Of a DNA stretch of 64,000 nt, positions 9,265 to 49,839 are shown piece by piece; position 1 is the stretch's first letter; every line of letters starts with the position of its first letter. The DNA comes from Candidatus Andersenbacteria bacterium RIFCSPHIGHO2_02_FULL_46_16 (GTDB taxonomy: Bacteria > Patescibacteriota > Andersenbacteria > UBA10190): NCBI GenBank assembly GCA_001817065.1, contig MHHQ01000025.1, positions 55,528 through 119,527 on the forward strand, read 5' to 3'. Position numbers and translations under genes: made by a program. The notes beneath the pieces were generated by a model that was not told the origin of the DNA, did not search any database, and was given only the letters and a program-made list of their open reading frames with translations.

Positions 9265-10152
9265 ATGACTGTTCACTATTCATCTGCTATGAAATTTCAT
9301 TATATCTCTCACCCCCGGCGTAATCCTGCTATTACTGCCTCTTTGCAGAAAGCTTGTTTAAGCCGCAGCATCGAGTTTATCCAGGTGAATCCATTTCACT
9401 TTGATTTTACGGATTTTTCGCAAATACCGGCCCCTGGTGATGCTATTTATCGCTCACTAGCTACTACTGCTCACAATGGCTTATCTCGTACTGTAGAAAG
9501 ATGGTTGATCCATCGGCAGGTCGCTACGCTTTACTCCTCCTATGAACGCGCTCTCAGCCAATGGCCACAATCCTATGTCATTCATGCCAAACATAGTTTG
9601 CCCCAACCGATCACCATTTGGAACGTACCGCGCGATCGCCAGTTGATTGATCGTTATGTGGAGTTTGTCCACGGATATCCGGTGATAATCAAGGTTACTG
9701 GCGGAAGCCATGGCGTTGGTGTTATAAAAGTTGACTCCCCCGCTTCCCTTTATTCATTAATAGATTATCTGCATGGCACCTGTACCCAGACTATTATGCG
9801 GCAATTTATAACGGCTCGGCACTCAGCGCGCTTAATTGTTTTAGCCGACCAAGTAATTGCCGCCATCGAATATAGTACCCCTGCCCACGATTTCCGCACC
9901 AACATTGGCCACAATCCTATCGTCAAGGCCAAGCAATTCTCGGCTGACATTAATAAATTAGCTGTGCAAGCCGTTGCCACCATGGGAAATTTATTTGGTG
10001 GTGTCGATATCTTAATTGACGCTAAAGGTCAGCCTTACATTACGGAAATGAATTTCCCCTGCAATTTTGCCCGTGCCGCTGCCGCCACCAACATAGATAT
10101 AGCCAGCCTGCTAGTCAACTTTCTGCAGGACGAAGCGAAAACCCATGTTTAA
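9265..10152 (+). CDS. ATP-grasp ligase, RimK/LysX-like (amino-acid ligase)
   Basis: GYPVIIKVTGGSHGVGVIKV is the ATP-grasp phosphate-binding loop. HDFRTNIGHNP matches the RimK-family DFRSNlhrGG motif. The C-terminal ITEMNFPCNF fits the EMN/ExN metal site. Confidence 0.7.
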   Translation: MTVHYSSAMKFHYISHPRRNPAITASLQKACLSRSIEFIQVNPFHFDFTDFSQIPAPGDAIYRSLATTAHNGLSRTVERWLIHRQVATLYSSYERALSQWPQSYVIHAKHSLPQPITIWNVPRDRQLIDRYVEFVHGYPVIIKVTGGSHGVGVIKVDSPASLYSLIDYLHGTCTQTIMRQFITARHSARLIVLADQVIAAIEYSTPAHDFRTNIGHNPIVKAKQFSADINKLAVQAVATMGNLFGGVDILIDAKGQPYITEMNFPCNFARAAAATNIDIASLLVNFLQDEAKTHV

Positions 10153-18830: not shown

Positions 18831-19937
18831 TTATCCCGCTACCTTTTTATAAACGTCAATGGTTTTATCCACTACCTCATCCCAACTATTTATCATGGCT
18901 CTCTTTTTCCCCTTTTCCGCCATCGCCGCGAGTCTGTTTTCATCTTGCAATACGGACAACATACGACTACTCAAATCATCAATAAACGACTCATCTAGCA
19001 GCCGATCACTCAATCGGTCTTTATAAAAATTAACTATCTCGCCGCTATCTCCTACTACTTCCGGTAAAGCACCGCCGTTGCTCACTATAACCGGTACTCC
19101 ATATGCCATCGCTTCCTGCGGTGGGAATCCCCACCCCTCGTAGACGGATGGCCAAACAAATAAATCAGCCTGACTATATAATCCACGCAGTTCCTTCTCA
19201 AATACAAACCCTCGCCAGCTGACCCTATCTTCTATTTTTAGTTTGCGCGCTAATGTCAGCCATACGGCTGACCCTTTATAGGCCTTTCCGGCAATTATTA
19301 AACGATGAGGTATCTGTTGATGTATCCGTGCAAAGGCTTTTAGCAGTGCACCGATATTCTTCCGCGGTTCAAGAGTACCAACAAATAATATATTAGCCTC
19401 CCCAGTCGACTTTTCAGGCAAATCCCTAAACCTATCATCAACACAGAGCGTTGTGACACTGATTTTGTCAGGCTCCACCCGTAATCTCTCGCAAATATCC
19501 CGCTTGCTTGCTTCTGAAATTGTTAAGATATGGTCGCTTTTATCCGCCGCTCTTTGCAACGCTTGTGGCCAATACCATCGTCGCGATAATTTTTGGCTGC
19601 TCGGCATTAGTAGCGGAATTACATCATAAATCGTCACCACCGTCGGCCGCACTTTATGACTTGGTACATCTGCTTTGGTGTAGTGAACAACGTCCGGATG
19701 AATTTCTTGCAATTTCTTCTCTACCTGTCGGTTTAACCAATAATTTAGCCCGATTGCTCCATATCTTTTCACTACTACAGCTTTGTGTATATCCGTCTCG
19801 ATTGGTACCGGGAAATCAACTATCGGATAACAACTTAGATCGCTCTTTTGCATCAACTTCCTTAACAGGTTCTTGACGTAACGATTCACTCCACCCCCCT
19901 GATTTGCTAAAGCTCTGGCTTCAATCGCTACTTTCAT
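18831..19937 (-). CDS. GT4 family glycosyltransferase
   Basis: [33 protein letters not shown]. Confidence 0.8.
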
Positions 19938-35205: not shown

Positions 35206-36485
35206 TGAAACTCTTGCCCGATCAATCAGTTGCCTCCAATCTTCGTGCTGACCGCAACACCATCTATATACAGCGCCGTCACCACACCGGTTTCTCGACT
35301 GGCGTTAATAAAGCCGATGAGTATAGTTGGTTTTTTCTCCTTGCTCTGTCTGGTACCAAAAATGAATCGATTACCCTGCTAGCGAACATGTCCCAAGCAG
35401 ATATTCCCACCCTCACTCGGAACAATAGTCTGCTCTTCTACTCGACCGATCAAATCAATTGGCGCCGCCTCGCTGTACCGGTTTTAACCGATAGCGCTGG
35501 TTTGAAGCAATACGCCACTTTTATCTTGCCAGTGACCGGTACCTGCTATATTTCCAACACTATCTTTTATGATTATTCATACCTCGATGACTATTTCGCT
35601 TCCTTTGTGGCCCGCCACACGGCCTATTGTCAGAAAACAACCATTGGCACATCTTTGCAAAACCGTCCTCTCCGCCTCCTCACGCTCTCTAACAATGCCA
35701 ATCCTCTCGATCGAATTCTACTCACCACCGGCTGTCATCCTGCTGAACCAGATGTTATCGCCAGTCAGGCTATAATAGATTGGTTAGTGTCCCCGCCCGG
35801 CCTTAAACTTCTTACCCGTTACCAAGTCGACGTCTTGCCTTTATCTAATCCCGACGGATTTGCAAATCGCAGTTGCCTCACCAGTAATGGCATCAACCTC
35901 TACTGGAATTTTATGAAAGACGATCAGAAGAAATGCCCCGAAGCGTTTTATCTATGGCGCTATATTTTAAATCCCCCGCCTCTCCTCTACTTGGACTTCC
36001 ACTCCTACGTCCATCAATACCATCGCCACCCCATGCCTTATCTAAAAGACACCATTGCTTACCGTGGTGCTTTCACCAAACATATCGTTAAGCAGATGGA
36101 TCGATACTTAATCAAACAGTCACGCGGCTTTTATCGTTTTGGTAAACTTGCCATGTGGCCTGATTCACTGTCTCGTCATATCACCCAGCAATTCAATACT
36201 ATTTCTTACACTAAATACCATTTCAATCTGTATGAGGGCATCCCAGCTAGCCAAACTCGAGCAGTTAATATATTTATTGGTTTAACCAAGCTCCTCTTGC
36301 GTCAATCAATCAATCACCAGCACATCCTCCTGGCTCCGCACGGCCATGCCATTCTTGATCACTCGGACCGCTGGCCATTTACCTGGTTTTACTATTTGCC
36401 TCAGCTTCTCAGTAAATCCTATATGTTCGGCAAATCTTACTGGCGTTATTATCGCCACCGCAATCAGTCACATCTTTTCCGTTAA
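35205..36485 (+). CDS. M14 zinc-carboxypeptidase-fold protein (carboxypeptidase or deacylase-like)
   Basis: Ordered motifs TTGCHPAEPD (HxxE zinc ligands), LPLSNPDGF (NPDG), GINLYWNF (in place of GxDxNRNF) and LYLDFHSYVH (DxHSY third zinc ligand). The start was moved from the track's 35076 to the ATG at 35205, which overlaps the upstream stop. Confidence 0.5.
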   Translation: MKLLPDQSVASNLRADRNTIYIQRRHHTGFSTGVNKADEYSWFFLLALSGTKNESITLLANMSQADIPTLTRNNSLLFYSTDQINWRRLAVPVLTDSAGLKQYATFILPVTGTCYISNTIFYDYSYLDDYFASFVARHTAYCQKTTIGTSLQNRPLRLLTLSNNANPLDRILLTTGCHPAEPDVIASQAIIDWLVSPPGLKLLTRYQVDVLPLSNPDGFANRSCLTSNGINLYWNFMKDDQKKCPEAFYLWRYILNPPPLLYLDFHSYVHQYHRHPMPYLKDTIAYRGAFTKHIVKQMDRYLIKQSRGFYRFGKLAMWPDSLSRHITQQFNTISYTKYHFNLYEGIPASQTRAVNIFIGLTKLLLRQSINHQHILLAPHGHAILDHSDRWPFTWFYYLPQLLSKSYMFGKSYWRYYRHRNQSHLFR

Positions 36486-36550
36486 TTATACACCTAAGTC
36501 AACACACTGTCGCTTAATTCTGAGTAAACTCCAACCTGCTCATTCAAAGC

Positions 36551-36722
36551 TATGGAAGTCACATTATGAAATGCCACAAATATAGTGACGGGCCCTGTCG
36601 GCGCTGCACCCCCACCCGACGGCTTCGGCCTGCCAGGCGGGCAGCCTGCAGGCGCTCGGTGGGGGTCCCCCGCGCCGCCACCCGTTTATTTAAGAGTGGC
36701 ATTTCATAATGTGACATCTATA
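36551..36722 (+). mobile_element. 172-bp GC-rich foldback/MITE-like repeat, copy 1
   Basis: 27-bp terminal inverted repeats TATGGAAGTCACATTATGAAATGCCAC ... GTGGCATTTCATAATGTGACATCTATA. The core is about 75% GC with nested palindromes. Identical to copies 2 and 4. Confidence 0.85.
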
Positions 36723-36782
36723 TTTGATTGCCGGACATCTTCTGCGCTTGCGCCCCTTCAAGCCCTGTCGCATTATTTTTAT

Positions 36783-37685
36783 ATGAAAGTACTCATTACT
36801 GGCGGAACTGGATTGCTCGGTTACCACCTGCAGCTGCTCGCACCACCTCAAGCCAATATAATTTCGTGCTATTTGCCCTCCGAGGAACCACTGCCCTATC
36901 CTTTACCTTTCCCCGCTCAGCCGCTCGATATCACTGATTTCTCCAGAGTAACCAATCTCTTCACCAAATTTTCACCGGACATTGTTATTCATACAGCAGC
37001 ACAAGGCAGCATCGATTGGTGTGAAGATCACAAACCATTAGCTCGTTCTGTAAATATCGATGCGACCTTTCACCTGATTGATCTTTGCCGCCGCCATCAT
37101 ACCCATTTCATTTTTCTTTCCACTAACGCTGTTTATGATGGTCATTCTTCCTATGCCAAGGAAACCGACGTTCCTCATCCGGTAAATTTTTACGGTGCAT
37201 CAAAACTAGCGGTCGAGCAGGCACTAGCCTCTGATTCGGTTTCCTCCACAATTATTCGCCCTAACTTGATGTATGGTTGGCCATATCCAGGCGGACGCGA
37301 CAATCAAGTCACACGTGTCATAAATTCCTTGCGTCAATCCTCCCCAATTAAAATTCTTTTCGATACTTGGTTTTCGCCCGTCTCAGCTAATTTCATGTCA
37401 CGAGTCATCTGGTACTGTGCCCTTGACCGAATATCAGGTCTCTTCAATATTGGCGGCAGTCAGCGTATGACGTTATTTGATCTATCCAAATTAACCGCGC
37501 AGATTTTCCAGCTTGATCCATCCTTATTAATCCCTGTCTCCATCAAAGATGTCCCAGCGGCCCCACGCGCTATTGATACCTCGTTTTCTACCGCTAAAAT
37601 GACCTCCGAACTATTCTTCTCTCCGCAGCCAGTCGCCGAAGACTTATTAGCCATGAAGACAATTCCCGTCCAGTCACCGGCATGA
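36783..37685 (+). CDS. dTDP-4-dehydrorhamnose reductase-like (RmlD family SDR)
   Basis: MKVLITGGTGLLGYHL (glycine-rich loop), HTAAQGSIDWCE, NFYGASKLAVEQ (YxxxK). The size and domain order are typical of RmlD. The track ORF 36585 begins inside the repeat, so the start was moved to ATG 36783. Confidence 0.7.
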   Translation: MKVLITGGTGLLGYHLQLLAPPQANIISCYLPSEEPLPYPLPFPAQPLDITDFSRVTNLFTKFSPDIVIHTAAQGSIDWCEDHKPLARSVNIDATFHLIDLCRRHHTHFIFLSTNAVYDGHSSYAKETDVPHPVNFYGASKLAVEQALASDSVSSTIIRPNLMYGWPYPGGRDNQVTRVINSLRQSSPIKILFDTWFSPVSANFMSRVIWYCALDRISGLFNIGGSQRMTLFDLSKLTAQIFQLDPSLLIPVSIKDVPAAPRAIDTSFSTAKMTSELFFSPQPVAEDLLAMKTIPVQSPA

Positions 37686-38824
37686 CGCGCGTTCACATTT
37701 TAGACCTGCCTCCCTCCCACCATTTTTTGCCGGTGCCGTCTGATTGGTACCCGCTTTATATCAACCAGCGATATTTTCACGATCTCGGCATTACTTTTCG
37801 TTTCTTTTCTGCACCCGACCCCGGCTTAAACAACTGTGATGTTGTTTTTTTATCATCACGCTACTTTGCTTTACAAACAAAAAGTACTACCGAACGCGCG
37901 CATCACTTGTCCTACATTGCCTCTCTAAAAACCAGCACCAATAAGATATTTTGGTTTGATTTTCGTGACAGTACTGGCAATACCCAATTTGAAGTTCTTC
38001 CCTATGTTGATCTTTATCTTAAAAAACAATTGCTGCGTAACTTATCTCTCTACACCAGCGCCTTTTACGGTAATCGCATTTATACCGACTTTATTCATCG
38101 TACCCAAGGAGTATCGGATGACTACACTGAATCCTGCGTCCCTTTGTTGCCTCAGTTTCATTCCAAACTAACCATATCCTGGAATCCAGGCTTACTCGAT
38201 TTTCGCGGCGGCTTAAACCGGCACTTGGTAAAGCAGCAAATCATTGATCACTGGGAAACCCGATTTCCAAATGACCATCACATCACCTGGCAAAATCCTC
38301 TCGCTCCTCGTCCATACCATATGCTTGCTCGCTTTAATATTAATTACCAACGTCGCACCGTGTCGTGGCAGCGCCGCCATGCGCTGCAGCTTCTTCATCA
38401 ATTAAACGATCCATTCATCATTTCTCGCTCTGAACTTACTTTGTCCGAAGAGCTATCTTATCGCCGTCAAGTCAAAATCGTGCTAAGCCTGTTTGGTTGG
38501 GGAGAGATTTGCTCACGTGATTTCCAGGCCTGGATCGCCGGCGCCGCATTGATTGCGCCCGACACATCTCACCTGGTCACCTATCCGGTAACACATATTC
38601 CCGGTCAAACCTATCTACCCATCAAATGGGACCTGTCTGATCTTTCCTCAGCTTACCAGCGCCTCATTAACGATTCCTCCCTTCGCCTCAACCTTGCCCA
38701 ATCCGGCCAAGCACGTTACCGCTTCGTCTGGTCCAAGAAAGGACGCCAATCATTCGTTAGCCATATTGCTGATTTATTGAGCAACTCACTCTCGCTCGCT
38801 TTATCTATGGAAGTCACATTATGA
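37682..38824 (+). CDS. Hypothetical protein, GT-B-like C-terminus. Its last 6 codons and stop are supplied by repeat copy 2.
   Basis: 380 aa. FGWGEICSRDFQAWIAGAALIAPD resembles a degenerate GT4 E-x7-E box. The 3' end ...LALSMEVTL-TGA lies inside the repeat (38806-38824). Confidence 0.45.
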   Translation: MTRVHILDLPPSHHFLPVPSDWYPLYINQRYFHDLGITFRFFSAPDPGLNNCDVVFLSSRYFALQTKSTTERAHHLSYIASLKTSTNKIFWFDFRDSTGNTQFEVLPYVDLYLKKQLLRNLSLYTSAFYGNRIYTDFIHRTQGVSDDYTESCVPLLPQFHSKLTISWNPGLLDFRGGLNRHLVKQQIIDHWETRFPNDHHITWQNPLAPRPYHMLARFNINYQRRTVSWQRRHALQLLHQLNDPFIISRSELTLSEELSYRRQVKIVLSLFGWGEICSRDFQAWIAGAALIAPDTSHLVTYPVTHIPGQTYLPIKWDLSDLSSAYQRLINDSSLRLNLAQSGQARYRFVWSKKGRQSFVSHIADLLSNSLSLALSMEVTL

Positions 38825-38977
38825 AATGCCACAAATATAGTGACGGGCCCTGTCGGCGCTGCACCCCCACCCGACGGCTTCGGCCTGCCAGGCGGGCAGC
38901 CTGCAGGCGCTCGGTGGGGGTCCCCCGCGCCGCCACCCGTTTATTTAAGAGTGGCATTTCATAATGTGACATCTATA
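38806..38977 (+). mobile_element. 172-bp foldback/MITE-like repeat, copy 2
   Basis: 100% identical to copy 1 over 172 nt. It overlaps the 3' end of the upstream CDS. Confidence 0.85.
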
Positions 38978-39079
38978 GTTCAGCGTCGTCGGAATCACTT
39001 CGAGCTTGATCTTCCTAAATAATTTTGATTAGGTAAATACCCCCATCATGTTCTAACATTAGGACAATAACCTTTTCCC

Positions 39080-39856
39080 ATGGCTTCATTAGCATCACGT
39101 GTTGGTCAAATATTGCCTGAAGGTAATCTTAAAAACAGCCTTCGTTTAATTGGCTTTAAAGTTTTATTCACAACAGTTGGCACTAAACAAGTTCTCTTGG
39201 GTACTAATCACGATAAAGTACCAGCTAAAATATCCCGCTTGGTACTAACCCACGAAAGTCTTGGTACACGTGAGAACGAAGGCTATCTGCAGCACTACCA
39301 GCTAAAAACAGGGGATGTTGTAGTTAATGCCGGCTCTTATCATGGCTATTTTGCCATTTATGCCGCGCATAAAGTCGGCCCCAGTGGCCGCGTTATCTGC
39401 TTTGAGCCAGAACCAAATAATCGTCGATTATTAGTCCAAAATATTTCGCTTAATTCACTACCTAATATAACTGTTATTCCCGCCGGCCTTTGGAGTGCTG
39501 ACACTCGCTTGCCTTTAATATCAATGGGCTCAGGCAGTCGTCTTCAGCCAGATACATCTTGGGACAAACAAACCATATCGGTATGTACCCTTGATACCGC
39601 CCTAGCCAAACTCCGTGTATCGACGATTAATCTCCTCACCATGGATATTGAGGGTGCTGAAATCGAAGCACTCAAAGGCGCTCGCCAGACCCTAGTTAAT
39701 AATCGTGACATAAATATTGCCATTGCCTCCTATCATCGTGTTAATGGTCGTCCCACAGCCCCATATGTCGAAAAATTGTTGCGGCAATCTGGCTTATACG
39801 CGGAAACGTCCTATCCGCGCCATCTCACTACTTATGGATACTACCGCCACTCCTAA
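39080..39856 (+). CDS. FkbM-family methyltransferase
   Basis: VVVNAGSYHGYFAIYAAHKVGPSGRVICFEPEPNN and LLTMDIEGAEIEALKGA match the FkbM-domain motifs (vDvGAniG...fEPnp; lKiDvEGaE). Confidence 0.75.
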   Translation: MASLASRVGQILPEGNLKNSLRLIGFKVLFTTVGTKQVLLGTNHDKVPAKISRLVLTHESLGTRENEGYLQHYQLKTGDVVVNAGSYHGYFAIYAAHKVGPSGRVICFEPEPNNRRLLVQNISLNSLPNITVIPAGLWSADTRLPLISMGSGSRLQPDTSWDKQTISVCTLDTALAKLRVSTINLLTMDIEGAEIEALKGARQTLVNNRDINIAIASYHRVNGRPTAPYVEKLLRQSGLYAETSYPRHLTTYGYYRHS

Positions 39857-40775
39857 TACTTACCAGCAATTCTTTCGTGTTTTACGACATGAGCCGCCCT
39901 GGTTTATTTTTATTCTTCTTAATAACACCATTACCTGGTTTTTCCATAAGTATCTTTTGCGACAGCCCTATCTGCAAAAAAATATCCACGACTATCGCAT
40001 GTGCTTTGATTTATCTGATCCCGGTATCTCCCGCTCCCTGTTATTGGTCGGAGACCGTGAACGCGAACATCGTTTCATTCTAAAGAAGGCTGTTCAATCG
40101 GGCAACACAATTTTGGACCTCGGCGCTAATATTGGCTACTACGTTTTAATGGAACAAAAAATCATTGGCCCCTCAGGCCACGTTATTGCCATTGAACCAG
40201 AACCAAAAAATTTCGCTTTGCTGCAGCGAAACATTGATCTCAACTTTTTTACCAGCCGAACAACTGCAATCAATGCTGCTGTAAGCGATCATGACGGCTC
40301 TGCCCCGCTATTCTTATCTAAATTAGGCAATGTCCACAGCTTGAAAGAAAAACAAACAAACCAGTATACCGGACAATCTATTTCTGTGCAGACTATCTCG
40401 CTATCCACCATTGCCGATCGTTATCCGAATATTCATCTCATCCGTATGGATATCGAAGGTTATGAGCAAGAAATCTTGCGCTCACTAATCCAAATCAACA
40501 CTAGCAAGCCATGGCTACCAAAAATTCTGTTCGAATTGCATCCCCCTAAATACACCGACGATTTTCCGAAACTCCTGTCAGATCTTTATACCCTAGGCTA
40601 TCGGGCTTCTTATCTTGCTACGTCTAGCCCGTCCTTGCTAGCGCAAGAAGGTTTAACCTACATCGCTAAACTGCCCACCGACGGGACAGTCCGCTATATC
40701 GCCACCCAGGTTCCTTTATCATCCTTGCTCAAACTTTATCCGCGTACCCGCGCCGTATTATTGGAGCATGCTTAA
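39834..40775 (+). CDS. FkbM-family methyltransferase (second tandem copy)
   Basis: ILDLGANIGYYVLMEQKIIGPSGHVIAIEPEPKNF and IRMDIEGYEQEIL. The start was moved from the track's 39717 to the ATG at 39834, giving about a 20-nt overlap with the upstream gene. Confidence 0.7.
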   Translation: MDTTATPNTYQQFFRVLRHEPPWFIFILLNNTITWFFHKYLLRQPYLQKNIHDYRMCFDLSDPGISRSLLLVGDREREHRFILKKAVQSGNTILDLGANIGYYVLMEQKIIGPSGHVIAIEPEPKNFALLQRNIDLNFFTSRTTAINAAVSDHDGSAPLFLSKLGNVHSLKEKQTNQYTGQSISVQTISLSTIADRYPNIHLIRMDIEGYEQEILRSLIQINTSKPWLPKILFELHPPKYTDDFPKLLSDLYTLGYRASYLATSSPSLLAQEGLTYIAKLPTDGTVRYIATQVPLSSLLKLYPRTRAVLLEHA

Positions 40776-40814
40776 ACCAATACCACACTATTCCACCCTC
40801 TTTTGTGCCTCCAC

Positions 40815-41621
40815 TTATCTCAGCAAGATGTTCTCCTGCCCATTCTGATCTTGTGTAACTTGCGCCAGCCTTCGTCTGGTCTTTTGCATCTCCTTCCACA
40901 AACGAGCCATAATGATGCCCGACTCGACTATCAAGCCAAGATGAAAATTTGATTTCCCTCTCTGCCGATTTACGAAAGTTGTCGGCACCTCGGCTACACG
41001 TCCGCCTAATAATTGAACTTGGTACAGTTCCTGACTCAACATGATATATCCGTCAGCATTCAGACTATCTAAGTTAAACTGATCAATTAATGTGCGGTGA
41101 AACACCCGGTAACCATTCGTATAATCTTTAATCCCCGCCCTTAAAATTAGGCTGGCCGATAAATTAGCAGCTCTGCTAAACACCTGCCGGTACCACGGCC
41201 ACCCAACAATCCGGCTACCGACGACATATCTCGATCCGATGACCAATCCCGCCTCCTCGCTTCTCACTAATAGTCTCGGCAGTTCCTTTGGGTTATGCGA
41301 TCCATCCGCGTCAGCTACGGCAATCAATTCCGCCTGGGAATGCTTTCTCACCCACTCATAGCCTTTCTTCACTGCACCTCCTCGCCCTAATCGACCGCAC
41401 TTAAGCACGACGACCTTTTTGTCACCCAAATAGGTTTGCCTAACCAGTTCATCAGTACCATCTGCAGAACTATCCGCTATGATAATCTTAATATCCAATA
41501 CCACCGATCTAAGGGCTTGAATAATTTCTAAGATATTCTTCCTTTCGTTTAATGTCGGAATTATAATCGCAACTTTTTTGGTCATATTATGTTCCTCTTG
41601 CTCCGCCTCAAATTTAGCCAA
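40815..41621 (-). CDS. GT2 polyprenyl-phosphate glycosyltransferase (DPM1-like)
   Basis: VAIIIPTLNERKNILEII...IIIADSSADGTDELV...GRGGAVKKGYEWV...IAVADADGSHNP. The likely true start is the internal MTKKVAII. Confidence 0.8.
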   Translation of the reverse strand: MAKFEAEQEEHNMTKKVAIIIPTLNERKNILEIIQALRSVVLDIKIIIADSSADGTDELVRQTYLGDKKVVVLKCGRLGRGGAVKKGYEWVRKHSQAELIAVADADGSHNPKELPRLLVRSEEAGLVIGSRYVVGSRIVGWPWYRQVFSRAANLSASLILRAGIKDYTNGYRVFHRTLIDQFNLDSLNADGYIMLSQELYQVQLLGGRVAEVPTTFVNRQRGKSNFHLGLIVESGIIMARLWKEMQKTRRRLAQVTQDQNGQENILLR

Positions 41622-41747
41622 TTCTTCTTCTCTCTTTGTTGCTTCAATGCTTGATTTTTATCCTTTATTGACCCCTATGAGCATCGATACTTTCCCTAAC
41701 CTGAAAACGCAGAGCCCACCTCCATCCATAGATTAGTCAATGTTCTT

Positions 41748-42704
41748 TTATGCTCTCTGCTTTTCCTTGATAGCCTTCCCTGCATGAGCCATATACCACC
41801 GATGTGTTTCGGTTAGCCCTTGCAGCAGCGTATATTCGTGCTTATAACCCAACTTTCTTAGTTTCGACACATCTAATCGACGCAAAGGCATCCCGTCTGG
41901 CTTCGTGCCATCTAACACAATTTCTCCAGAATATCCTACAACCGTCTTTAACATTTCTACTAAATCTAAGATATTAATATCCTCACCAGTTCCTACATTA
42001 ATTATTTCTGGACTATTATATTTATCCATCAACAGCAATAAAGCACGCGCCAGATCGTCCACAAACATAAATTCCCTTCTCGGCTTGCCCGAGCCCCAGA
42101 CTTTTATAAACGGCTGGTTCGTCTCCTTCGCGACAACTAACTTATGCAATAATGCCGGTAACACATGGGCGAAACTATCGTTAAAAGTATCACCCGGACC
42201 ATATAAATTAGTGGGCATAGCTGAAATAAAATTGTCGCCATACTGGCGGTGGTATGCCTGACACAATTTAATCGCCGCGATTTTCGCGATAGCATATGCT
42301 TCGTTAGTCGGCTCCAGCTTACCAGTCATGAAATACTCCTCTCTAATTGGCTGCTGGCTATCTTTCGGATAAATGCAAGCACTGCCTAGGTTTAATAGTT
42401 TTTCAACCTTATGTTCATGCGAAGCATGAATTATATTCGTCGCTATTTGTAAATTTTGGTACAAAAAATCTACCGGGTGCGTATCATTGTCTAATATTCC
42501 ACCCACTCTAGCGGCAGCTATTATGACAAATTGCGGCCTCTGTCGCACAAACCAATGGTCTACGGCAGTTTTGTCAGTCAGATCCAGATCCTCTCTCGTT
42601 TGATATACCAGGTTAGTATACCCCTTCTTCCTTAACAATCTTACTACAGCCGATCCGACTAATCCACTATGTCCGGCAATATATATTTTGTCTGTTTTGT
42701 TCAT
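41748..42704 (-). CDS. fcl: GDP-L-fucose synthase (GDP-4-keto-6-deoxy-D-mannose 3,5-epimerase/4-reductase); a ColC-type enzyme cannot be excluded
   Basis: [69 protein letters not shown] and [16 protein letters not shown] match Fcl along the full length (318 aa). Confidence 0.85.
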   Translation of the reverse strand: [318 protein letters not shown]

Positions 42705-42787
42705 TTACAAATTATTATGCTCAGTATATAAACGTCTTATTTATATATCAACCATCCTTTTTACAGTCATTTAGTTTTTTGTCCTGA

Positions 42788-43792
42788 TTATATATTAATC
42801 TTTCGATAAATTCTTCGCCATATATTAGGATGTCTCCACGCTTCAATCCTCGGTGCCCACCGCTGATAAAATTCTTGGTTGTGACGCAAACGCTTTAATA
42901 TTTCACTCGTGACCGGTTGCGGCGCTATACCGGGTTGCGTTAACTCTGGCCGCGCTAGTACTAGAATTCTAGCCGTCATTATCCGCCTAATATCCCCGGC
43001 TTTCATTTTCTTACCGTCAAAGCGGGGACTTTTGATACTGACGATTTCAAACCCTGTTTTTGCTAATAAGTAACGAACACTTTCATCATTAAACATAAAT
43101 GGATGCATTATCTCAACCATTTGATTTATTGGACGATTTAAGACAGTACTGACCGCATCATACAAACTTAAAAACAGAAGGCCCTTAGGCGACAGCATAG
43201 ATTTTATTTTCAGTAGGTTTCCTTTGGGATCGAGTGTGTGATTAAGGGTTTGGGCACAGATGATCAAATCAAATTTTTTATCAGTCACAAAGTCCTCAAA
43301 TAGCCCCTGAAAAATTTGACTACCGGTACGGCGCGTTGCGTCTTCCGCTACCCGAATCACCGGTTCCACTCCGTGGGTTACAATTTTAGGATAATACTTC
43401 ATCCAAGCCGCCATCGTACCGCCGTTGCAGCAGCCAATATCCAGTAACGACTTTACTGGAAGCTTAATTTGCTCCCTGATCAGGGGAATCATAGTCTTTT
43501 CAGCATGCTGATATTGCTTATTGAAAATATGGTTAAGTCCGCTATCCGTACCGATCGCCGCTCTCCGATAATCTGCTTTATTTAATTCGGCATATTTATC
43601 ATCAGTCGGACGAGGATTGATAAACATTACACCGCAGTTTTTGCACATCACGGCCTTCAGCGGCAAACCATATTTTTCACTATGACAAAAAGGTGTTACC
43701 TCCACCCCACCACACAAATTGCAGGGAAGTGAGATCAACTCTCTAGTATAAGCTTTTAGGTTTACCTTCATTACGTGAATCATAACTGACAA
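42788..43792 (-). CDS. Class I SAM-dependent methyltransferase with an N-terminal Cys4 zinc-ribbon
   Basis: CNLCGG...CKNCG are paired Cys motifs. LLDIGCCNGGTMAAWMKYYPKIVTHGVEP is motif I. Confidence 0.7.
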   Translation of the reverse strand: MSVMIHVMKVNLKAYTRELISLPCNLCGGVEVTPFCHSEKYGLPLKAVMCKNCGVMFINPRPTDDKYAELNKADYRRAAIGTDSGLNHIFNKQYQHAEKTMIPLIREQIKLPVKSLLDIGCCNGGTMAAWMKYYPKIVTHGVEPVIRVAEDATRRTGSQIFQGLFEDFVTDKKFDLIICAQTLNHTLDPKGNLLKIKSMLSPKGLLFLSLYDAVSTVLNRPINQMVEIMHPFMFNDESVRYLLAKTGFEIVSIKSPRFDGKKMKAGDIRRIMTARILVLARPELTQPGIAPQPVTSEILKRLRHNQEFYQRWAPRIEAWRHPNIWRRIYRKINI

Positions 43793-43946
43793 GCCTCACT
43801 GCCATCAATAGAATATGCCCCAAACAATGTGCAGCCCACACCAGATAGCTAGTATCGCCGTTGCTTCTCGCCCATCCTTACTCTTGCGAGGCCGGTGTCC
43901 GTCCACGGAGTATGTTGTATAACCAGCAATAGGGTAAAATTAACCG

Positions 43947-45209
43947 ATGAAAGCAATTCATTGGCCAGCCGTCGAGGACTTTTTACAAGCACAATTTAAA
44001 TTTGATGTCGCGCATTATTTAAGAAGTGGTTGGTGGTCAGTGTTCAGCAATATAGTGCAGGCTGCCAGCGGTTTAACGCTCGCCATTCTTTTTGCCCATT
44101 TAGCATCCAAAGAAGTATTTGGTGAATTCCAATTGGTCATCTCAATCATTTCCATGACGGCCGTCATCTCATTGAAAGGATTAGATACTGTCATTGTTCG
44201 TGACGCAGCTCAAGGCAAAGAAGGTATCTTGCGTCGGGCGTCAAGACTACGTTGGCAGTGGAGTTGGCTCGCCTTACCTGTCCTGAGCGGACTAGGCTGG
44301 TATTATTGGCAACTTGGCCAAGCCCGAATCGGTTTCGCTCTTGTTTTATCCGGTCTACTCGCCCCCTGGAATTACTTGGCACCAACCTGGGAAGATTTCG
44401 TTAAAGGTCGTCAGCTGTGGAAACAATACTCGTTGTTTACATCACTAAGATCCGGTGCTGTTCTCTGCTTTGTTGGTTTATCGATTTGGCTTAGCCAGGG
44501 AAATCTGCTCGTTGTTTTTTCGATGTATTTGCTCATCAACCTAATCTTGAACCAAGGCTTAATCTGGTTTTACAAACGAAGCGTAAAGAACGATAACGTC
44601 AACGCCGACTGGAAGTCTTATGGAATGTTCTTGTCGAAATTAAGTTGGCTTAAGACCATTGTGGCTAATTTAGATAAGGTACTAGTAGGAATAATTATTT
44701 CGCCCTCCGCTTTGGCGGTTTATTCAATCGCCCTGATTATCCCGAATTATTTGCAATTAGCAGTTAAGGGGTTTTTTCAAACCACGAGTCCCCGCTTAAG
44801 CGGACGTAAACAAATCTACTGGCACGAATTAGCGATTACGGGGTTTTTTGGTCTGGTTTTTGCCTTAATTACCGTCGTCGCAGTAAAGCTTTTGCTAATC
44901 AGATTCTTTGGCGAATCATATCAACCAGCCCTTCCGCTGGCTTATATCGCAGCCACGGCCATGATTTTCCATCCCATTGCCCTTTATCTGGTCAATTTTG
45001 CCAATATGAATAACCGGAAAGACGCGCTCGTTAAATGTAATTTAATTTGTCCGATTGTCCGATTAACATTGCTCTTATGGTTAGGCAGCCAATGGCATGA
45101 AACAGGCTTCGCGCTAGTCTATGCCATTATGGGTTTAGTTTGGGTTATTGTCCCCATTTGGTTGTTAAAAATCAACTGGCGACAATTAACGGTGGGAGAG
45201 CTTAACTGA
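43947..45209 (+). CDS. Wzx-type oligosaccharide flippase (polysaccharide biosynthesis protein, MOP superfamily)
   Basis: 420 aa with 12 predicted TM helices. The N-terminus (VFSNIVQAASGLTLAILFAHLASKEVFGEFQLVISIISMTAV) has the Polysacc_synt-type arrangement. Confidence 0.6.
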   Translation: MKAIHWPAVEDFLQAQFKFDVAHYLRSGWWSVFSNIVQAASGLTLAILFAHLASKEVFGEFQLVISIISMTAVISLKGLDTVIVRDAAQGKEGILRRASRLRWQWSWLALPVLSGLGWYYWQLGQARIGFALVLSGLLAPWNYLAPTWEDFVKGRQLWKQYSLFTSLRSGAVLCFVGLSIWLSQGNLLVVFSMYLLINLILNQGLIWFYKRSVKNDNVNADWKSYGMFLSKLSWLKTIVANLDKVLVGIIISPSALAVYSIALIIPNYLQLAVKGFFQTTSPRLSGRKQIYWHELAITGFFGLVFALITVVAVKLLLIRFFGESYQPALPLAYIAATAMIFHPIALYLVNFANMNNRKDALVKCNLICPIVRLTLLLWLGSQWHETGFALVYAIMGLVWVIVPIWLLKINWRQLTVGELN

Positions 45210-45214
45210 ATACA

Positions 45215-46201
45215 TCAATGATCTATTTTTACATTGCCAAGAGTACCGCGCAGACGCCCGCGGGAGTTTGGTGCTCGCAGCCAGTCCGCTAGCGTTTGAA
45301 AATATTTTGACAAACGTCCTCGACCCGGGAAATCAGGCAGTATTCGTTCTACCGAACGAATAGCTTTAATTGAATTTGACAGCCGGTCGATCTCCTTGTT
45401 GGACAGCCAACCATAAGAATTATTTGTTAGCTCCAAGGCATAGTCAAGATACCCATAGTGTAGGCAAATCAGCACCGCATAATATATTTTCAGTTTTTGC
45501 TGATCGGGTGACCAGTTATTTAATAGCTGGAAGTAGCTATTCATATTTCTAAGATATAAGGCATCCCCAGCTAATAATTGTCCTTTTCGGTTCCCATAGT
45601 TTAAACCAATCTGGCGCTTGAAGTATTGTGGCCGTATATCAAAAAGATAGAAACCAAGAGACTGCAAATACTGGTCGACCTGGGAAAATAGCGGCTGTTT
45701 CTGGTAAAGTGGCGCGAACTCGATCTCAACTTCCACGCCAAACCCGTATTTTTGCAAAAATTTATTCCCACCCTGCAGAATTAGCAGTTCAGAACCTTGC
45801 GTATCTAGTTGCAAAAAGTCACCACTCGTTACCAAACCTTCCTGATTAAGATTATCCAGTGTGTCGACTTTTACTTCCGATTGACCTGTTAATTGAAAGT
45901 AGTCGGCAACTGCAAACCGGTCTAAAAAATCCTGGTTTGGTTTATAAATTGAAGAGACAGCTGGATTTTTAGTTTGGTAAAAGGTAACCGAGTCGCGGTG
46001 GTCCAACAAACCTATATTAATATAATGTTGATTATCCAACTGTGGTAAATTGAGATAAGAATTAGGATCTGGTTCAAAACCAATTACGTTTAACAGATCA
46101 GCGTACGGCCGCCAATGTTCTGGCAATCCACCGCTCGCGCCAATCAGTAAAAATGTCAGCGGATGACTGCCAACTTCCTTTGTTAATACGGTCGGTAGCA
46201 T
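45215..46201 (-). CDS. FkbM-family methyltransferase-like
   Basis: FLLIGASGGLPEHW...VIGFEPDPNSY and LQLDTQGSELLILQGG match the FkbM motifs. Confidence 0.55.
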   Translation of the reverse strand: MLPTVLTKEVGSHPLTFLLIGASGGLPEHWRPYADLLNVIGFEPDPNSYLNLPQLDNQHYINIGLLDHRDSVTFYQTKNPAVSSIYKPNQDFLDRFAVADYFQLTGQSEVKVDTLDNLNQEGLVTSGDFLQLDTQGSELLILQGGNKFLQKYGFGVEVEIEFAPLYQKQPLFSQVDQYLQSLGFYLFDIRPQYFKRQIGLNYGNRKGQLLAGDALYLRNMNSYFQLLNNWSPDQQKLKIYYAVLICLHYGYLDYALELTNNSYGWLSNKEIDRLSNSIKAIRSVERILPDFPGRGRLSKYFQTLADWLRAPNSRGRLRGTLGNVKIDH

Positions 46202-46204
46202 ATC

Positions 46205-47296
46205 TTATAATTTTTCCTGCATCGCGTTAATTAAGTATCGGCTGCGGGCTTCAATAGTATGTCCACTCAAAACATCTTGTCGCCAATTCTTGGCTAGCCG
46301 TTCCAGTTCTGCTGGTTTTTGCAAGTAATTCTTTAGTTTTTGCAACGTCACATTTGCATCAGCTAAATAATAGCGACGGTTTCGTAATACAACATCATAC
46401 ACAATTGCATTACGTCCATCCCTAATCGGCGGCCCACAGGTTTCAATAAATGGTTTCGGCAACATAATGGCAACATTGTGTGCTAGACCAACCTCACAAT
46501 GTCTAAACGAATCCCAACAGCGGCCAGATGGAGATAATGCTACCCTGGCTTGCGACAAAAAGTCCCAATATTGACGGTTGGTGATAAAGGTCGACCGATC
46601 GTCATGCGTCATAATATTCGTGTCTGGTATCTTTTCCTGCACTGCCTCTACTATTTGAGCCCGTTCCGGTGACGATTGGTCTTCACGCTTTCGCCCATTA
46701 TAAAATACCGACTTAGTCTTTCGTTTTTTTATAAATTGGTATGATGATGGCCTGACCGGAATTGGTCCAAATGGTAATATCTGATCCGTTCCCAAGCCAA
46801 TGGGCAAGTCCTTTTTAAAATATATGTCGTAATCCCTTCCCTCTTTGAAATCAAGTGTTAAGTGCTCATCTATATCCGGATCACCATAGAGGGTGTCATA
46901 GTCAGGAATATCCAATATTGCTACTGGTAAATTGAATCGTCTAGCTCTTTTGATTACCTGCGCAATCAGATCAGGCTCCCCGATAGCCGAAATAATCACC
47001 GCGTCAATCTGACGCAAGGTCTTGTCAATCTGCTTTCTCTTAATAAATGTTGGCCTGGTAGCACCATGACAAGAAGGATATGGGCAAGACAGCGGGAAAT
47101 TAGCGGCAAATACCGATGGATAATATTGGCCGATAACAAAAACATTGTCTGGTCCTAAGACACTTGGCAAATCTCCAGCATATTGTATTTCGGCGTGATG
47201 AGGCAGCTCCTGACGATAAACCTTGCTTTTAATAAATTCAAAATAATTAAAAAGCAACCGTCTGGAAGGCACAAGTAAAATCTTATCAATGGTCAT
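46205..47296 (-). CDS. Hypothetical protein (363 aa). Its start codon lies 7 nt from repeat copy 3.
   Basis: Clean ORF in operon context. No family recognised. Confidence 0.4.
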   Translation of the reverse strand: MTIDKILLVPSRRLLFNYFEFIKSKVYRQELPHHAEIQYAGDLPSVLGPDNVFVIGQYYPSVFAANFPLSCPYPSCHGATRPTFIKRKQIDKTLRQIDAVIISAIGEPDLIAQVIKRARRFNLPVAILDIPDYDTLYGDPDIDEHLTLDFKEGRDYDIYFKKDLPIGLGTDQILPFGPIPVRPSSYQFIKKRKTKSVFYNGRKREDQSSPERAQIVEAVQEKIPDTNIMTHDDRSTFITNRQYWDFLSQARVALSPSGRCWDSFRHCEVGLAHNVAIMLPKPFIETCGPPIRDGRNAIVYDVVLRNRRYYLADANVTLQKLKNYLQKPAELERLAKNWRQDVLSGHTIEARSRYLINAMQEKL

Positions 47297-47303
47297 TTCT
47301 TTA

Positions 47304-47469
47304 TATAGATATCACCTTATTAAATGCCACCTTAAAATAAAACGGGTGGCGGCGCGGGGGACCCCCGCCGAGCCCCAGCAGGCTGCCCGCAGGGCCGATG
47401 CGGTCGGGCGGGGGTGCAGCGCCGACAGTCCCCGTCACTATATTTGTGGCATTTCATAAGGTGACTTCC
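47304..47469 (-). mobile_element. Foldback/MITE-like repeat, copy 3 (diverged, about 90% identical, 166 nt)
   Basis: Reverse-complement orientation. It carries compensatory substitutions in both TIR arms and both core stem arms, a 3-nt internal deletion and a diverged outer end. Confidence 0.8.
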
Positions 47470-48613
47470 TTGCATTGATTTTACTGGGTTGACGTTGCTT
47501 TGATACCCTCACTATCCCTGAATCACCCACACCCAACTTATCTAACGCCTCTAACCAAAGTTTCATACCGACCGACATCTGCGCTAAGCTCCAAATATTT
47601 TTAACCTTTCCCCGCTTGCCAGCGCACAGGTTAAATTCCGAATATTCTTCGTCTATTCGTACGGCAATTTCTTCATATCCGCCAAGTAAAGACTTTGCTT
47701 TTAGATCAAGCGACCACAAGAAATCAACCAACGTTTCGGTTAGTGCCATGCCTTGCAGCTCCAGTAAAAAGTCTTGGTAATTATGATGGTCATTACGGTG
47801 TTGTGTTACTACTGGCGACCCATACGCCACCGCCAATCCAAATTGATCCGCCAAGAACTTACTAATATATGAAGAATAAATGTCATCAAACCTGCCAATA
47901 AACGGGCACAAAAACGCTGTCAACCAAAAACTATTAAGATAAGCCGTATTCTGTGTATCAAGGGGGCAGATCATATTTTTACCTAACACCAGCCGTTCTT
48001 TACGCCGCACTTTATAATCTCCCCGCAATCCTTTTATTCTCTCAATCGCATCCACGTCCGGGTTCTGTTCCCACAATCCTTGGTTCATTGCGATTTTTAC
48101 CTTTTTTTGCTTTCTTCTAACCTTTCTCTCCTTATTTTTCTCACGGTCGAACGGCGAGAAGCCTCTCATGAATATTGGCTCATCATAAAATGGTTCTAAG
48201 GCGTTATACCAAGTAGGGCTACCAGCTTCCACCACTTTTCCGCGATAGACGCCGCTGCTATGTTTGCTTAAAAAATCAGTTTCTTTTAATAGGTTATCGT
48301 CATCCAAAGTGATTAGAACGTCGTCTGATCGCAACCCTTGTTTAATACAAAACAAGTAGGCAAAATTACGCCGGTCAATCGAATTAAAGGGAATATATTT
48401 AGTTATAGCCAACTCCTTGAACTCTTTTAACTGCGCCTTTACATCTAAATACGTCACTCCTGCAAACTGGCTGCAATATTCCTTGACTTCTTCCGGCGTT
48501 TTTAAATCACCCGCAATCACGAACATGTACTCATGTCCGTGCATTTTAAAATCGTTAATATATTCCTCAATAAAAGTCGGCTTATTTATAGTGGTGGTTG
48601 CAACGTAGTACAT
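47438..48613 (-). CDS. Putative GT-A-fold glycosyltransferase (STELLO/DUF288- or RGP-like). Its C-terminal codons and stop are supplied by repeat copy 3.
   Basis: MYYVATTTINKPTF...FVIAGDLKTP...VLITLDDDNLL (DxD). The family assignment is tentative. The ORF ends ...SPYEMPQI-TAG inside the repeat. Its ATG is 1 nt from repeat copy 4. Confidence 0.4.
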   Translation of the reverse strand: MYYVATTTINKPTFIEEYINDFKMHGHEYMFVIAGDLKTPEEVKEYCSQFAGVTYLDVKAQLKEFKELAITKYIPFNSIDRRNFAYLFCIKQGLRSDDVLITLDDDNLLKETDFLSKHSSGVYRGKVVEAGSPTWYNALEPFYDEPIFMRGFSPFDREKNKERKVRRKQKKVKIAMNQGLWEQNPDVDAIERIKGLRGDYKVRRKERLVLGKNMICPLDTQNTAYLNSFWLTAFLCPFIGRFDDIYSSYISKFLADQFGLAVAYGSPVVTQHRNDHHNYQDFLLELQGMALTETLVDFLWSLDLKAKSLLGGYEEIAVRIDEEYSEFNLCAGKRGKVKNIWSLAQMSVGMKLWLEALDKLGVGDSGIVRVSKQRQPSKINARKSPYEMPQI

Positions 48614-48614
48614 A

Positions 48615-48786
48615 TATAGATGTCACATTATGAAATGCCACTCTTAAATAAACGGGTGGCGGCGCGGGGGACCCCCACCGAGCGCCTGCAGGCTGCCCGC
48701 CTGGCAGGCCGAAGCCGTCGGGTGGGGGTGCAGCGCCGACAGGGCCCGTCACTATATTTGTGGCATTTCATAATGTGACTTCCATA
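48615..48786 (-). mobile_element. 172-bp foldback/MITE-like repeat, copy 4
   Basis: The exact reverse complement of copies 1 and 2 over all 172 nt. Confidence 0.85.
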
Positions 48787-48879
48787 GTTATTTATCTAAA
48801 CTACCAAATGCTCCCGTAAAAACAAACTCCTACGCTAATGATTTGTCCCTCTTAGCTAACAACATGACTGCCTTCCTCG

Positions 48880-49839
48880 CTATTTTATTTTTACCACTGG
48901 CGCCTCTTCTTGCCTTCTGATTATTTTTTCCACTATAAACTCTTCCACCTTCCTCATTTCCTCCCCTGTTGCCCCCCCTATATGCGGCGTAATAATGACA
49001 TTGCGATGTTTCTTGGCATATTTCACTATTGGACATTTGCTTATCTCGCCATTCATCTCGTCGGTTATCACATCCAGCCCGGCACCGCCAATCCGGCCAG
49101 CCTCTAGCGCCTTGATTAAATCCTGCTCTCGAACGACCGCGCCCCGGCTGGTATTAACCATCAGCTGGCCCATCTTAGCTTGCCTAAAATATTCCGCTCC
49201 TATCAATCCGGCCGTCTCGCCATTCAGTGGTACATGTATCGATACAATATCTGCCGTCTTTGCCAGCTCTGCCAAGGTTTCCGCTTTTGTATATTTAGTC
49301 CTTTTAACATAGGGATCATAGTATACAATCTGGCACCCGAAGTTTTTAGTTAACTTAGCGGTCATTTTACCCAACCGTCCCATACCGATAATTCCCACGG
49401 TTTTTCCTCGCATTGATCTTCCTATCCATCGATCCCTCTCCCATTTTCCTGCCAACACCGCTTGGCTCGCCGGCAGAATATGACGCATTAAATTAAGCAT
49501 TAAGCTTATCGACAATTCTGCTGTTGGCGTAATTGTTTTCAAGAACATTGACTCTCCCTGCAGCGAAATAATTTTAATTCTCCTCTCCTTTGCCGCTAAC
49601 AAGTCTATGTGGTCAATGCCAGTCGTGGGCGTCGCAATAAACTTAAGTCGGGGAGCGCTGTTTATAAGCAACTTGTCCACCTTTATTCCTAATCGAACAA
49701 TAATCCCTTCAAAATCATGAATATTATTTTTTAATTCTTCATAATCATACTGCCTAGCAACAACCTCGCACCCCGCGCGCTCTAGGTTTTCTATTGCCGT
49801 TTGGCTAAAATCCCTAGCTTCAGTAATTAATATTTTCAT
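48880..49839 (-). CDS. D-isomer-specific 2-hydroxyacid dehydrogenase family (NAD-binding)
   Basis: GKTVGIIGMGRLGKMTAKLTKNFGCQIVYYDP is the GxGxxG Rossmann motif. LDVITDE...PHIGGAT is the catalytic region. Confidence 0.75.
   Translation of the reverse strand: MKILITEARDFSQTAIENLERAGCEVVARQYDYEELKNNIHDFEGIIVRLGIKVDKLLINSAPRLKFIATPTTGIDHIDLLAAKERRIKIISLQGESMFLKTITPTAELSISLMLNLMRHILPASQAVLAGKWERDRWIGRSMRGKTVGIIGMGRLGKMTAKLTKNFGCQIVYYDPYVKRTKYTKAETLAELAKTADIVSIHVPLNGETAGLIGAEYFRQAKMGQLMVNTSRGAVVREQDLIKALEAGRIGGAGLDVITDEMNGEISKCPIVKYAKKHRNVIITPHIGGATGEEMRKVEEFIVEKIIRRQEEAPVVKIK

Follow-up and report, generated by a model that had tools for sequence, protein, structure and literature searches.

A TA-inserting miniature inverted-repeat element at the 3' ends of two glycosyltransferase genes in a surface-glycan cluster of Candidatus Andersenbacteria

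Two glycosyltransferase genes in a 64,000-nt stretch of Candidatus Andersenbacteria DNA (contig MHHQ01000025.1; hereafter the window), a CgeB-like gene on the plus strand (37682..38824) and an RGP-like gene on the minus strand (47438..48613), have their stop codons inside copies of a repeat, which leaves one to ask if the last residues of their products are native or were supplied by a mobile element. Comparison with element-free relatives makes it highly probable that a miniature inverted-repeat transposable element (MITE), inserting at TA and mobilised in trans, placed four copies in the surface-glycan cluster of this member of the Candidate Phyla Radiation (CPR; Patescibacteria), that the ends of these two genes were thereby rewritten, and that the changes were tolerated. 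An earlier note, made from the sequence of the window, had read the plus-strand gene as ending in LALSMEVTL-TGA inside copy 2 and the minus-strand gene as ending in YEMPQI-TAG inside copy 3, and both readings were confirmed.

Anatomy of the element and its empty sites

A repeat finder placed four copies of approximately 170 aligned nt near 36550 and 38805 (plus strand) and near 47301 and 48611 (minus strand), and the 20-nt core of the inverted repeat occurs eight times in the window (four elements with two arms each), compared to 0.01 occurrences expected. The three copies named in the earlier note were all recovered, but its list was incomplete, the fourth copy at 48617-48784 on the minus strand having been missed. 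The bounds of the element proper, 168 nt, were taken from the alignment of the copies and from element-free loci, for which close relatives with approximately 90-91% nucleotide identity were used, represented by L001 and L063 and including contigs from Joint Genome Institute (JGI) sample 3300014208. The four copies are as follows.

36553..36720, plus strand: MITE copy 1, 168 nt, with TA at 36551-36552 and 36721-36722; empty site in L001
38808..38975, plus strand: MITE copy 2, 168 nt, with TA at 38806-38807 and 38976-38977; exact empty site in L001
47306..47470, minus strand: MITE copy 3, 165 nt, with TA at 47304-47305 and, on the other side, a mutated CA at 47471-47472; absent from L063
48617..48784, minus strand: MITE copy 4, 168 nt, with TA at 48615-48616 and 48785-48786; empty site in L063

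The closest homologue of the 380-amino-acid product of 37682..38824 is P0001 (87% identical), encoded on JGI contig Ga0172379_10085609 (L001), where the gene order (RmlD-like, glycosyltransferase, FkbM) matches that of the window. BLAST alignment of L001 with the window paired positions 1-199 with 36354-36552, 198-2284 with 36721-38807, and 2316-2505 with 39009-39197, at approximately 90% identity, and showed that copies 1 and 2 are both absent from L001. At copy 1 the empty junction reads AAGC-TA-ATTG and the filled one AAGC-TA-[168]-TA-TTTG, while at copy 2 TTATC-TA-GTTCA stands against TTATC-TA-[168]-TA-GTTCA, the exact empty site in L001 being TTATC-TA-GTTCATCG. The cluster of the 391-amino-acid product of 47438..48613 likewise contains a member of at least 90% identity and 383 amino acids (P0246), and the contigs that carry it (L063-L066, one of them from the same JGI sample as L001) are syntenic with the window and without copies 3 and 4. 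The copy 4 empty site in L063 reads AACTATATGTAC (also given as AACTATATGTACTAC), and the filled site AAC-TA-[168]-TA-TATGTAC. Filled and empty sites thus differ by exactly the element and one TA for copies 1, 2 and 4, therefore indicating that the element duplicates TA and that all four insertions are specific to the lineage of the window. The four copies would have entered the surface-glycan cluster of one Andersenbacteria lineage after its split from a sister of about 90% identity.

The element begins with TGGAAGTCACATTATGAAATGCCAC and ends with GTGGCATTTCATAATGTGACATCTA, and its terminal inverted repeats of approximately 42 nt (TGGAAGTCACATTATGAAATGCCAC... and TAGATGTCACATTATGAAATGCCAC..., of the TGGAAGTCAC... 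type) enclose an imperfectly palindromic core of 81% GC. The arms are 79% complementary over their full length, with the 20-nt core identical between them. The element has no coding capacity, its only open frame being 52 codons within the GC-rich core, and one long hairpin is predicted as its fold (-102.5 kcal/mol, z = -9.8). An Rfam scan of window positions 36000-49500 at E<=1 matched no family. Bacterial MITEs are recognised by small size without a transposase gene, terminal inverted repeats, a target duplication proven by empty sites, dispersed near-identical copies and a predicted long, stable stem-loop; all of these were found here, and the assignment of the element to the MITEs (non-autonomous class II elements) is well supported. 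It forms a new family within the MITEs, a kind of element already well known.

Copies 1, 2 and 4 are mutually 99% identical, while copy 3 is 86% identical to them and has a 4-nt deletion. Two substitutions in copy 3 have their counterparts in the opposite arm (A-U to C-G and A-U to G-C), both arms carrying GTCACCTTATGAAATGCCAC, and such paired changes, as read from the alignment, suggest a separate subfamily master copy or homogenisation of the arms rather than random decay. A shorter variant of 142 nt was seen in L036 (Ga0209343_10042334, positions 1222-1363), which has lost 26 nt at the hairpin centre and keeps both inverted repeats and the TA flanks.

Gene ends at the element copies

The genes and gene remnants at copies 2, 3 and 4 are listed below.

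37682..38824, plus strand: CgeB-like glycosyltransferase gene, now of 380 amino acids; MEVTL and TGA (38807-38824) come from the duplication and the left inverted repeat of copy 2
38977..39009, plus strand: displaced native 3' end (SSASSESLRA and TGA), now non-coding; from the excision reconstruction, aligning with the L001 tail
47438..48613, minus strand: RGP-like (PF03214) glycosyltransferase gene, now of 391 amino acids; RKSPYEMPQI and TAG (47470-47438) come from copy 3
47301..47303, minus strand: TAA, by reconstruction the inferred native stop of the RGP-like gene; 4 nt before the ATG of 46205..47296 and stranded past copy 3
48768..48785, minus strand: mini open reading frame MEVTL* (ATG GAA GTC ACA TTA TGA), formed at the left end of copy 4, as the sequence itself shows

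The coding sequence 37682..38824 ends ...LALSMEVTL-TGA, with the TGA (38822-38824) within copy 2, and the point of insertion lies 10 codons ahead of the native stop codon and 17 nt before the present one. In silico excision of copy 2 together with one TA restored an open reading frame (ORF) of 385 amino acids ending ...LALSSSASSESLRA, and the orthologues end ...ALSSSSSASSFASLSS (P0001 and P0242; also given as ...LSSSSSASSFASLSS) and ...VLSSPVSAASFSALPS (P0002), with the same Ser/Ala-rich tail. These comparisons show that the gene, as far as its reading frame predicts the product, exchanged 10 native residues (SSASSESLRA*) for MEVTL*. The copy contributes five codons and not the six counted in the earlier note, the Ser being native. 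That note also held that the native C-terminus and stop codon had been removed by the insertion; at copy 2 this stands in so far as they were lost from the gene, but they were displaced and not deleted, the 10 native codons and their TGA surviving just downstream. The remnant (38977..39009) is more diverged from L001 than the sequence that flanks it, which is consistent with lost constraint in a stretch too short for a test. The 380-amino-acid protein is deposited under five GenBank protein accessions, from Andersenbacteria metagenome-assembled genomes (MAGs).

The coding sequence 47438..48613 ends ...NARKSPYEMPQI-TAG, with the TAG (47440-47438) within copy 3, which starts at 47470 and is flanked by CA on the left and TA on the right. 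Excision of copy 3, assuming that the CA was a TA, gave a protein of 381 amino acids ending ...PSKINV-TAA, with the next ATG, that of 46205..47296, 4 nt on. The orthologue in the relative has 383 amino acids and ends ...SSKVKIKQ*, its TGA overlapping the next ATG as ATGA. The relative has diverged over 14-16 nt around the site and differs there by 2 nt in length, and the reconstruction is therefore good only within two codons. Copy 3 probably lies at the last codon or at most two codons before the stop, so that its effect would be a 10-residue extension rather than a replacement; it supplies 10 codons where nine had been counted, and the removal of a native C-terminus claimed for it probably does not hold, since the loss would be confined to the stop codon and perhaps two codons before it. 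The gain of RKSPYEMPQI* by 47438..48613 is shown, and the insertion would have put 141 nt between this gene and its downstream neighbour, the two having formerly abutted or overlapped. The earlier note had proposed comparison with element-free orthologues, and these end ...ALSSSSSASSFASLSS and ...SSKVKIKQ, not in EVTL or YEMPQI, which supports its interpretation. A Shine-Dalgarno-like string, AAGGTGAT, arises in copy 3 from substitutions in the right inverted repeat and lies 14 nt upstream of the ATG of 46205..47296; judged by the spacing, it is probably too far from the ATG to function.

The same gene that bears copy 3 at its 3' end has copy 4 sitting 1 nt upstream of its ATG (48613), which is the true start codon according to the homologues (MYY[VI].TT) and now directly follows the copy 4 hairpin. 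The empty site shows that copy 4 took the place of the whole upstream region of 47438..48613, to within 1 nt of the ATG. The 96-nt native upstream region now runs into a different ATG, composed of the duplicated A and the TG of the element, and this start of the mini-ORF lies two bases from the former junction between the native upstream region and the start codon.

Copy 1 is intergenic, between an M14-peptidase-like gene and an RmlD-like gene. The ORF 36346..36585 ends ...WKSHYEMPQI within this copy, a tail that the earlier note had called spurious. The ORF itself is spurious: it runs in an alternative frame across the 3' end of the M14-peptidase-like gene, and that gene's own stop codon is kept in the element-free relative. 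The alternative frame is open in the relative too, because the C-rich strand is poor in stop codons. Within window positions 36585-36782 (plus strand), the GC-rich core of copy 1 holds a GTG followed by an open frame (VTGPVGAAPPPDGFGLPGGQP...) that enters the RmlD-like gene, and some pipelines therefore call a protein of 366 instead of 300 amino acids. The same frame gives spurious ORFs at other copies (L019, 6534-6926; L055, 6923-7213).

Mobilisation and alternative explanations

A scan of JGI metagenome contigs with the inverted-repeat 20-mer returned 46 loci, five of them unrelated chance matches, and in the remaining loci (metagenome and bin contigs) the element has at least 17 different complete insertion sites, with 44 different end flanks. 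Between 41 and 43 of the 44 unique end flanks finish in TA. The base 5' of the TA is most often C (22), followed by A (12) and G (10), and never T; at position -5 there is an excess of A. The target preference is symmetric (V-TA-B), that is, V-TA on each flank read towards the element. Elements of the IS630/Tc1-mariner group duplicate TA, and IS630 favours CTAG. The symmetric V-TA-B preference is the behaviour of IS630/Tc1-mariner elements, and we infer that the MITE was moved in trans by a DDE transposase of this type, the family being named from the TA duplication and nothing else.

Several points weigh against this account. No autonomous element with matching inverted repeats was found in approximately 620 kb of fetched DNA, where the only matching inverted repeats 0.6-3 kb apart are pairs formed by neighbouring MITE copies, and a crude six-frame search of the same DNA for the IS630-type motif SPxLNPxE gave no match. 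The empty site of copy 3 is inexact, since its left TA reads CA and L063 differs there by 2 nt in length. This copy is 14% diverged from the others and yet missing from a lineage 91% identical to the window, so that it is either of a different subfamily or fast-evolved. Finally, the translation of both tails is a prediction from reading frames. Outside the metagenome contigs, the 20-mer scan of species-representative genomes returned only a chance match in Eubacterium hominis, the representative of the host species either lacking the element or lying outside the scanned set, and a scan of viral contigs and a search of a plasmid collection found no copy of the element.

Among the alternatives, the one that survives best, although it is quite unlikely, is that the element has been co-opted as a mobile gene-boundary module, carrying stop codons in nearly all frames and a very stable RNA hairpin that acts as a terminator, in mRNA stability or as an RNase III substrate, and that its position at gene ends of the glycan cluster is selected to uncouple or tune the expression of neighbouring genes. 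All four copies in the window share one orientation relative to the flanking genes, in which the GC-rich hairpin is followed by TTTATTT, and copy 3 parts two genes whose stop and start codons share ATGA in the relative; each inverted repeat contains weak promoter-like hexamers (9/12 matches), and hairpins of Neisseria MITEs are reported in RNase III processing and mRNA regulation (PMC2229807). However, a terminator scan called none of the copies, the promoter-like matches are at background (8 found compared to 4.7 +/- 2.0 expected), and the chance of all four copies being co-oriented is approximately 1 in 8, while at other loci the element lies in either orientation and one copy merely disrupts a gene.

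A still weaker case, which we regard as very unlikely, is that of a REP/BIME-like or IS200/IS605-type hairpin moved in single-stranded form by a Y1 enzyme (RAYT/TnpA) and inserted 3' of TA without duplication. The whole element is a long imperfect palindrome that in single-stranded form would fold into a hairpin, compensating changes at two base pairs separate copy 3 from the other copies, and filled and empty sites do not distinguish the insertion of an element ending in TA 3' of a TA from a TA duplication. The ends of the element, however, are long, near-perfect terminal inverted repeats of approximately 42 nt, whereas those of IS200/IS605 are dissimilar subterminal hairpins and REPs are units of 20-40 nt. 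The palindromic units of 20-40 nt without target duplication that define REP/BIME contrast with a unit of 168 nt here, whose inverted repeats measure 42 nt and which has TA at either side, and the symmetric V-TA on both flanks is as expected if a symmetric transposase dimer acts on a palindromic target.

The two remaining explanations have next to no probability. The pairs formed by copies 1 and 2 and by copies 4 and 3 bracket one or two complete genes in direct orientation (spans of 2,419 and 1,475 nt) and could be read as composite transposons or cassettes that brought in the enclosed glycosyltransferase genes, but these genes predate the insertions, because they occur in the same order and position in the element-free relatives L001, L013, L015 and L063. 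The proposal that the tails are native and the repeat boundary mis-called, so that the repeat would begin after the stop codon, found no supporting evidence and is contradicted by element-free orthologues at 87-91% identity that end ...LSSSSSASSFASLSS and ...SSKVKIKQ, by the DNA empty site of copy 2, which precedes the present stop codon by 17 nt and falls within the reading frame, and by the recurrence of MEVTL* at the end of an unrelated gene disrupted mid-gene in L026.

Tolerance, known systems and database records

Under the TA-inserting MITE explanation, the shortness of both tails is nearly automatic. The six frames entering the element read MEVTL*, WKSHYEMPQI*, YRCHIMKCHS*, IDVTL*, an immediate stop and one frame open for 52 codons, and thus five of the six stop within 10 codons because stop codons abound in the AT-rich inverted repeats; a ribosome entering from the end of a gene would soon meet one. 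The position at gene ends would in turn reflect tolerance, since the intergenic spacers of CPR genomes are tiny and tolerated insertions would crowd against gene boundaries. In L026 (Ga0209211_10001085, positions 487-654), a mid-gene copy of the element splits an unrelated protein of at least 318 amino acids into a product of 166 amino acids plus the five-residue tail MEVTL* and a separate ORF of 149 amino acids, which shows that the element does not target gene ends. Selection would then retain those insertions that fall in dispensable tails or in spacers.

In the family alignments, no conservation is seen past approximately residue 365 in the 380-amino-acid protein and residue 360 in the 391-amino-acid protein. 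The AlphaFold models have a mean predicted local distance difference test (pLDDT) score of 83 for the 380-amino-acid protein and 86 for the 391-amino-acid protein; their last helices end at residues 367 and 359, respectively, and pLDDT falls below 50 at residues 369-380 and 371-391. The same tailed alleles recur unchanged in at least 24 contigs from NCBI, the European Nucleotide Archive (ENA), JGI and Logan, under multiple GenBank protein accessions, which argues that the changes were tolerated and fixed. Both tails thus lie in non-conserved C-termini that are predicted to be disordered, and the most likely reading is that neutral, tolerated changes took place rather than adaptive ones. Nothing in the sequences indicates a function for either tail.

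Gene ends supplied by MITEs are a known and ordinary effect, and nothing is changed in the knowledge of MITEs by the present case. Passages of a study of Coxiella burnetii (PMC5896051) describe QMITE1 and QMITE2 copies that overlap the 3' ends of ubiB, pntAA, mutT, nagZ, recN, ruvB and other genes by 1-50 bp, and a QMITE2 copy from which EnhC of the Dugway strain takes its last 33 residues. As far as those passages go, the QMITEs resemble the present element as small, non-autonomous inverted-repeat elements at gene 3' ends, with C-terminal extension and stable transcript hairpins, but differ from it in their unrelated sequence and host phylum and in that the direct repeat of QMITE2 is unique to each copy instead of a fixed TA (PMC5896051); the passages give no empty-site evidence for them. 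The review of Delihas (PMC2229807) covers TA-flanked bacterial MITEs with long stem-loops and with frames fused to host ORFs, among them RUP, which is mobilised by IS630. The RUP element of pneumococcus (mobilised by IS630-Spn1) has a similar length of approximately 100-170 nt, terminal inverted repeats, TA insertion, stop codons in all or most frames, and copies so nearly identical that recent mobility is implied (PMC2229807). It differs in having a known IS630-family partner with matching inverted repeats, of which none was found here, and in being AT-rich throughout, compared to the core of 81% GC here. The Correia/NEMIS elements of Neisseria share inverted repeats of approximately 24-26 bp that start with TA, the TA duplication, a long stem-loop transcript, a location close to gene boundaries and ORFs fused to host ORFs (PMC2229807), whereas they have an IHF site and documented promoters. 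The Andersenbacteria element, for which nothing comparable is shown, is apparently dissimilar to them in sequence and has a CPR host in place of Neisseria. The enterobacterial RU-1 (ERIC), RU-2 (YPAL) and RU-3 and the Rickettsia palindromic elements are likewise MITE-like repeats translated in frame with host genes, but there a long through-frame adds tens of residues internally or terminally, whereas here a stop usually follows after 0-10 codons. A literature search for MITEs in CPR/Patescibacteria found no relevant paper in the library covered, which is weak evidence of absence.

Through its exact empty sites, the locus offers a clean worked example of how a TA-targeting MITE can land right at the margin of a gene in a packed genome and yet not destroy the gene, and it shows a small CPR genome as host to a recently active non-autonomous transposon, which implies a working transposase somewhere in the population. 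It is unlikely that this is the first characterised, recently active MITE family of the CPR and that its clustering in the glycan locus is not passive, generating heritable variation of cell-surface sugars in an episymbiont. If so, the four co-oriented or inverted copies within 12 kb could act as recombination substrates and as expression uncouplers, the latter by way of their stop codons, a hairpin of -100 kcal/mol and the lost overlapping stop/start junction.

For database users, the GenBank proteins OGY33774.1 and OGY33783.1 end in transposon-derived residues, which should be trimmed before the enzymes are modelled or compared. An older assembly of the same population (GW2011_GWA2_45_14) contains KKT93883.1 (P0247) and KKT93892.1 (P0243), chimeras with element-derived N- or C-terminal pieces. 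In the IMG set Ga0075963, every copy is cut at the hairpin centre and joined to sequence approximately 40-70 nt past the far end (loci L020, L022, L034, L041-L045, L048, L050, L057, L058 and L062). Judged from the position of the junctions, those of Ga0075963 and of the KKT proteins are most likely an assembly artefact at a palindromic repeat. In L006 (GCA_003501005.1), which had been taken to lack copies 2 and 4, both are present and collapsed around NN gaps at the hairpin centre (copy 4 at 9977-9978 and copy 2 at 19658-19659), and L007, L008 and L010-L012 begin or end inside an element, the repeat breaking assemblies. The copies themselves are unlikely to be assembly artefacts, because independent assemblies from several sources agree. 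A candidate for a second, different MITE within the glycosyltransferase gene, at approximately 1438-1891 of L002 (P0005; ENA k141_541010), was rejected, since the contig turns abruptly to unrelated GC-rich sequence; L002 is identical to the window gene up to residue 236 and then switches, and by this pattern it is most likely a chimeric assembly contig.

The host is an uncultivated groundwater bacterium with a genome of approximately 45% GC. Window positions 37438-58613 are 100% identical to contig MHHU01000044.1 of GCA_001817145.1 (Candidatus Andersenbacteria, CPR), and the RGP-like product of 47438..48613 is identical to a protein in Candidatus Andersenbacteria MAGs. The region around the element copies is a large surface-glycan cluster, with RmlD-like and GDP-sugar epimerases, FkbM methyltransferases, several glycosyltransferases, NeuB, a CMP-sugar synthetase and capsule synthesis genes. 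Over window positions 1-64000, the GC skew is very strongly negative (-0.10 to -0.35 in all 2-kb bins but one) and independent of gene strand, coming near zero only at 44-46 kb. The proteins encoded on the plus strand of the window are rich in Pro, Leu, His, Ser and Thr, and those encoded on the minus strand in Gly, Lys, Glu and Arg.

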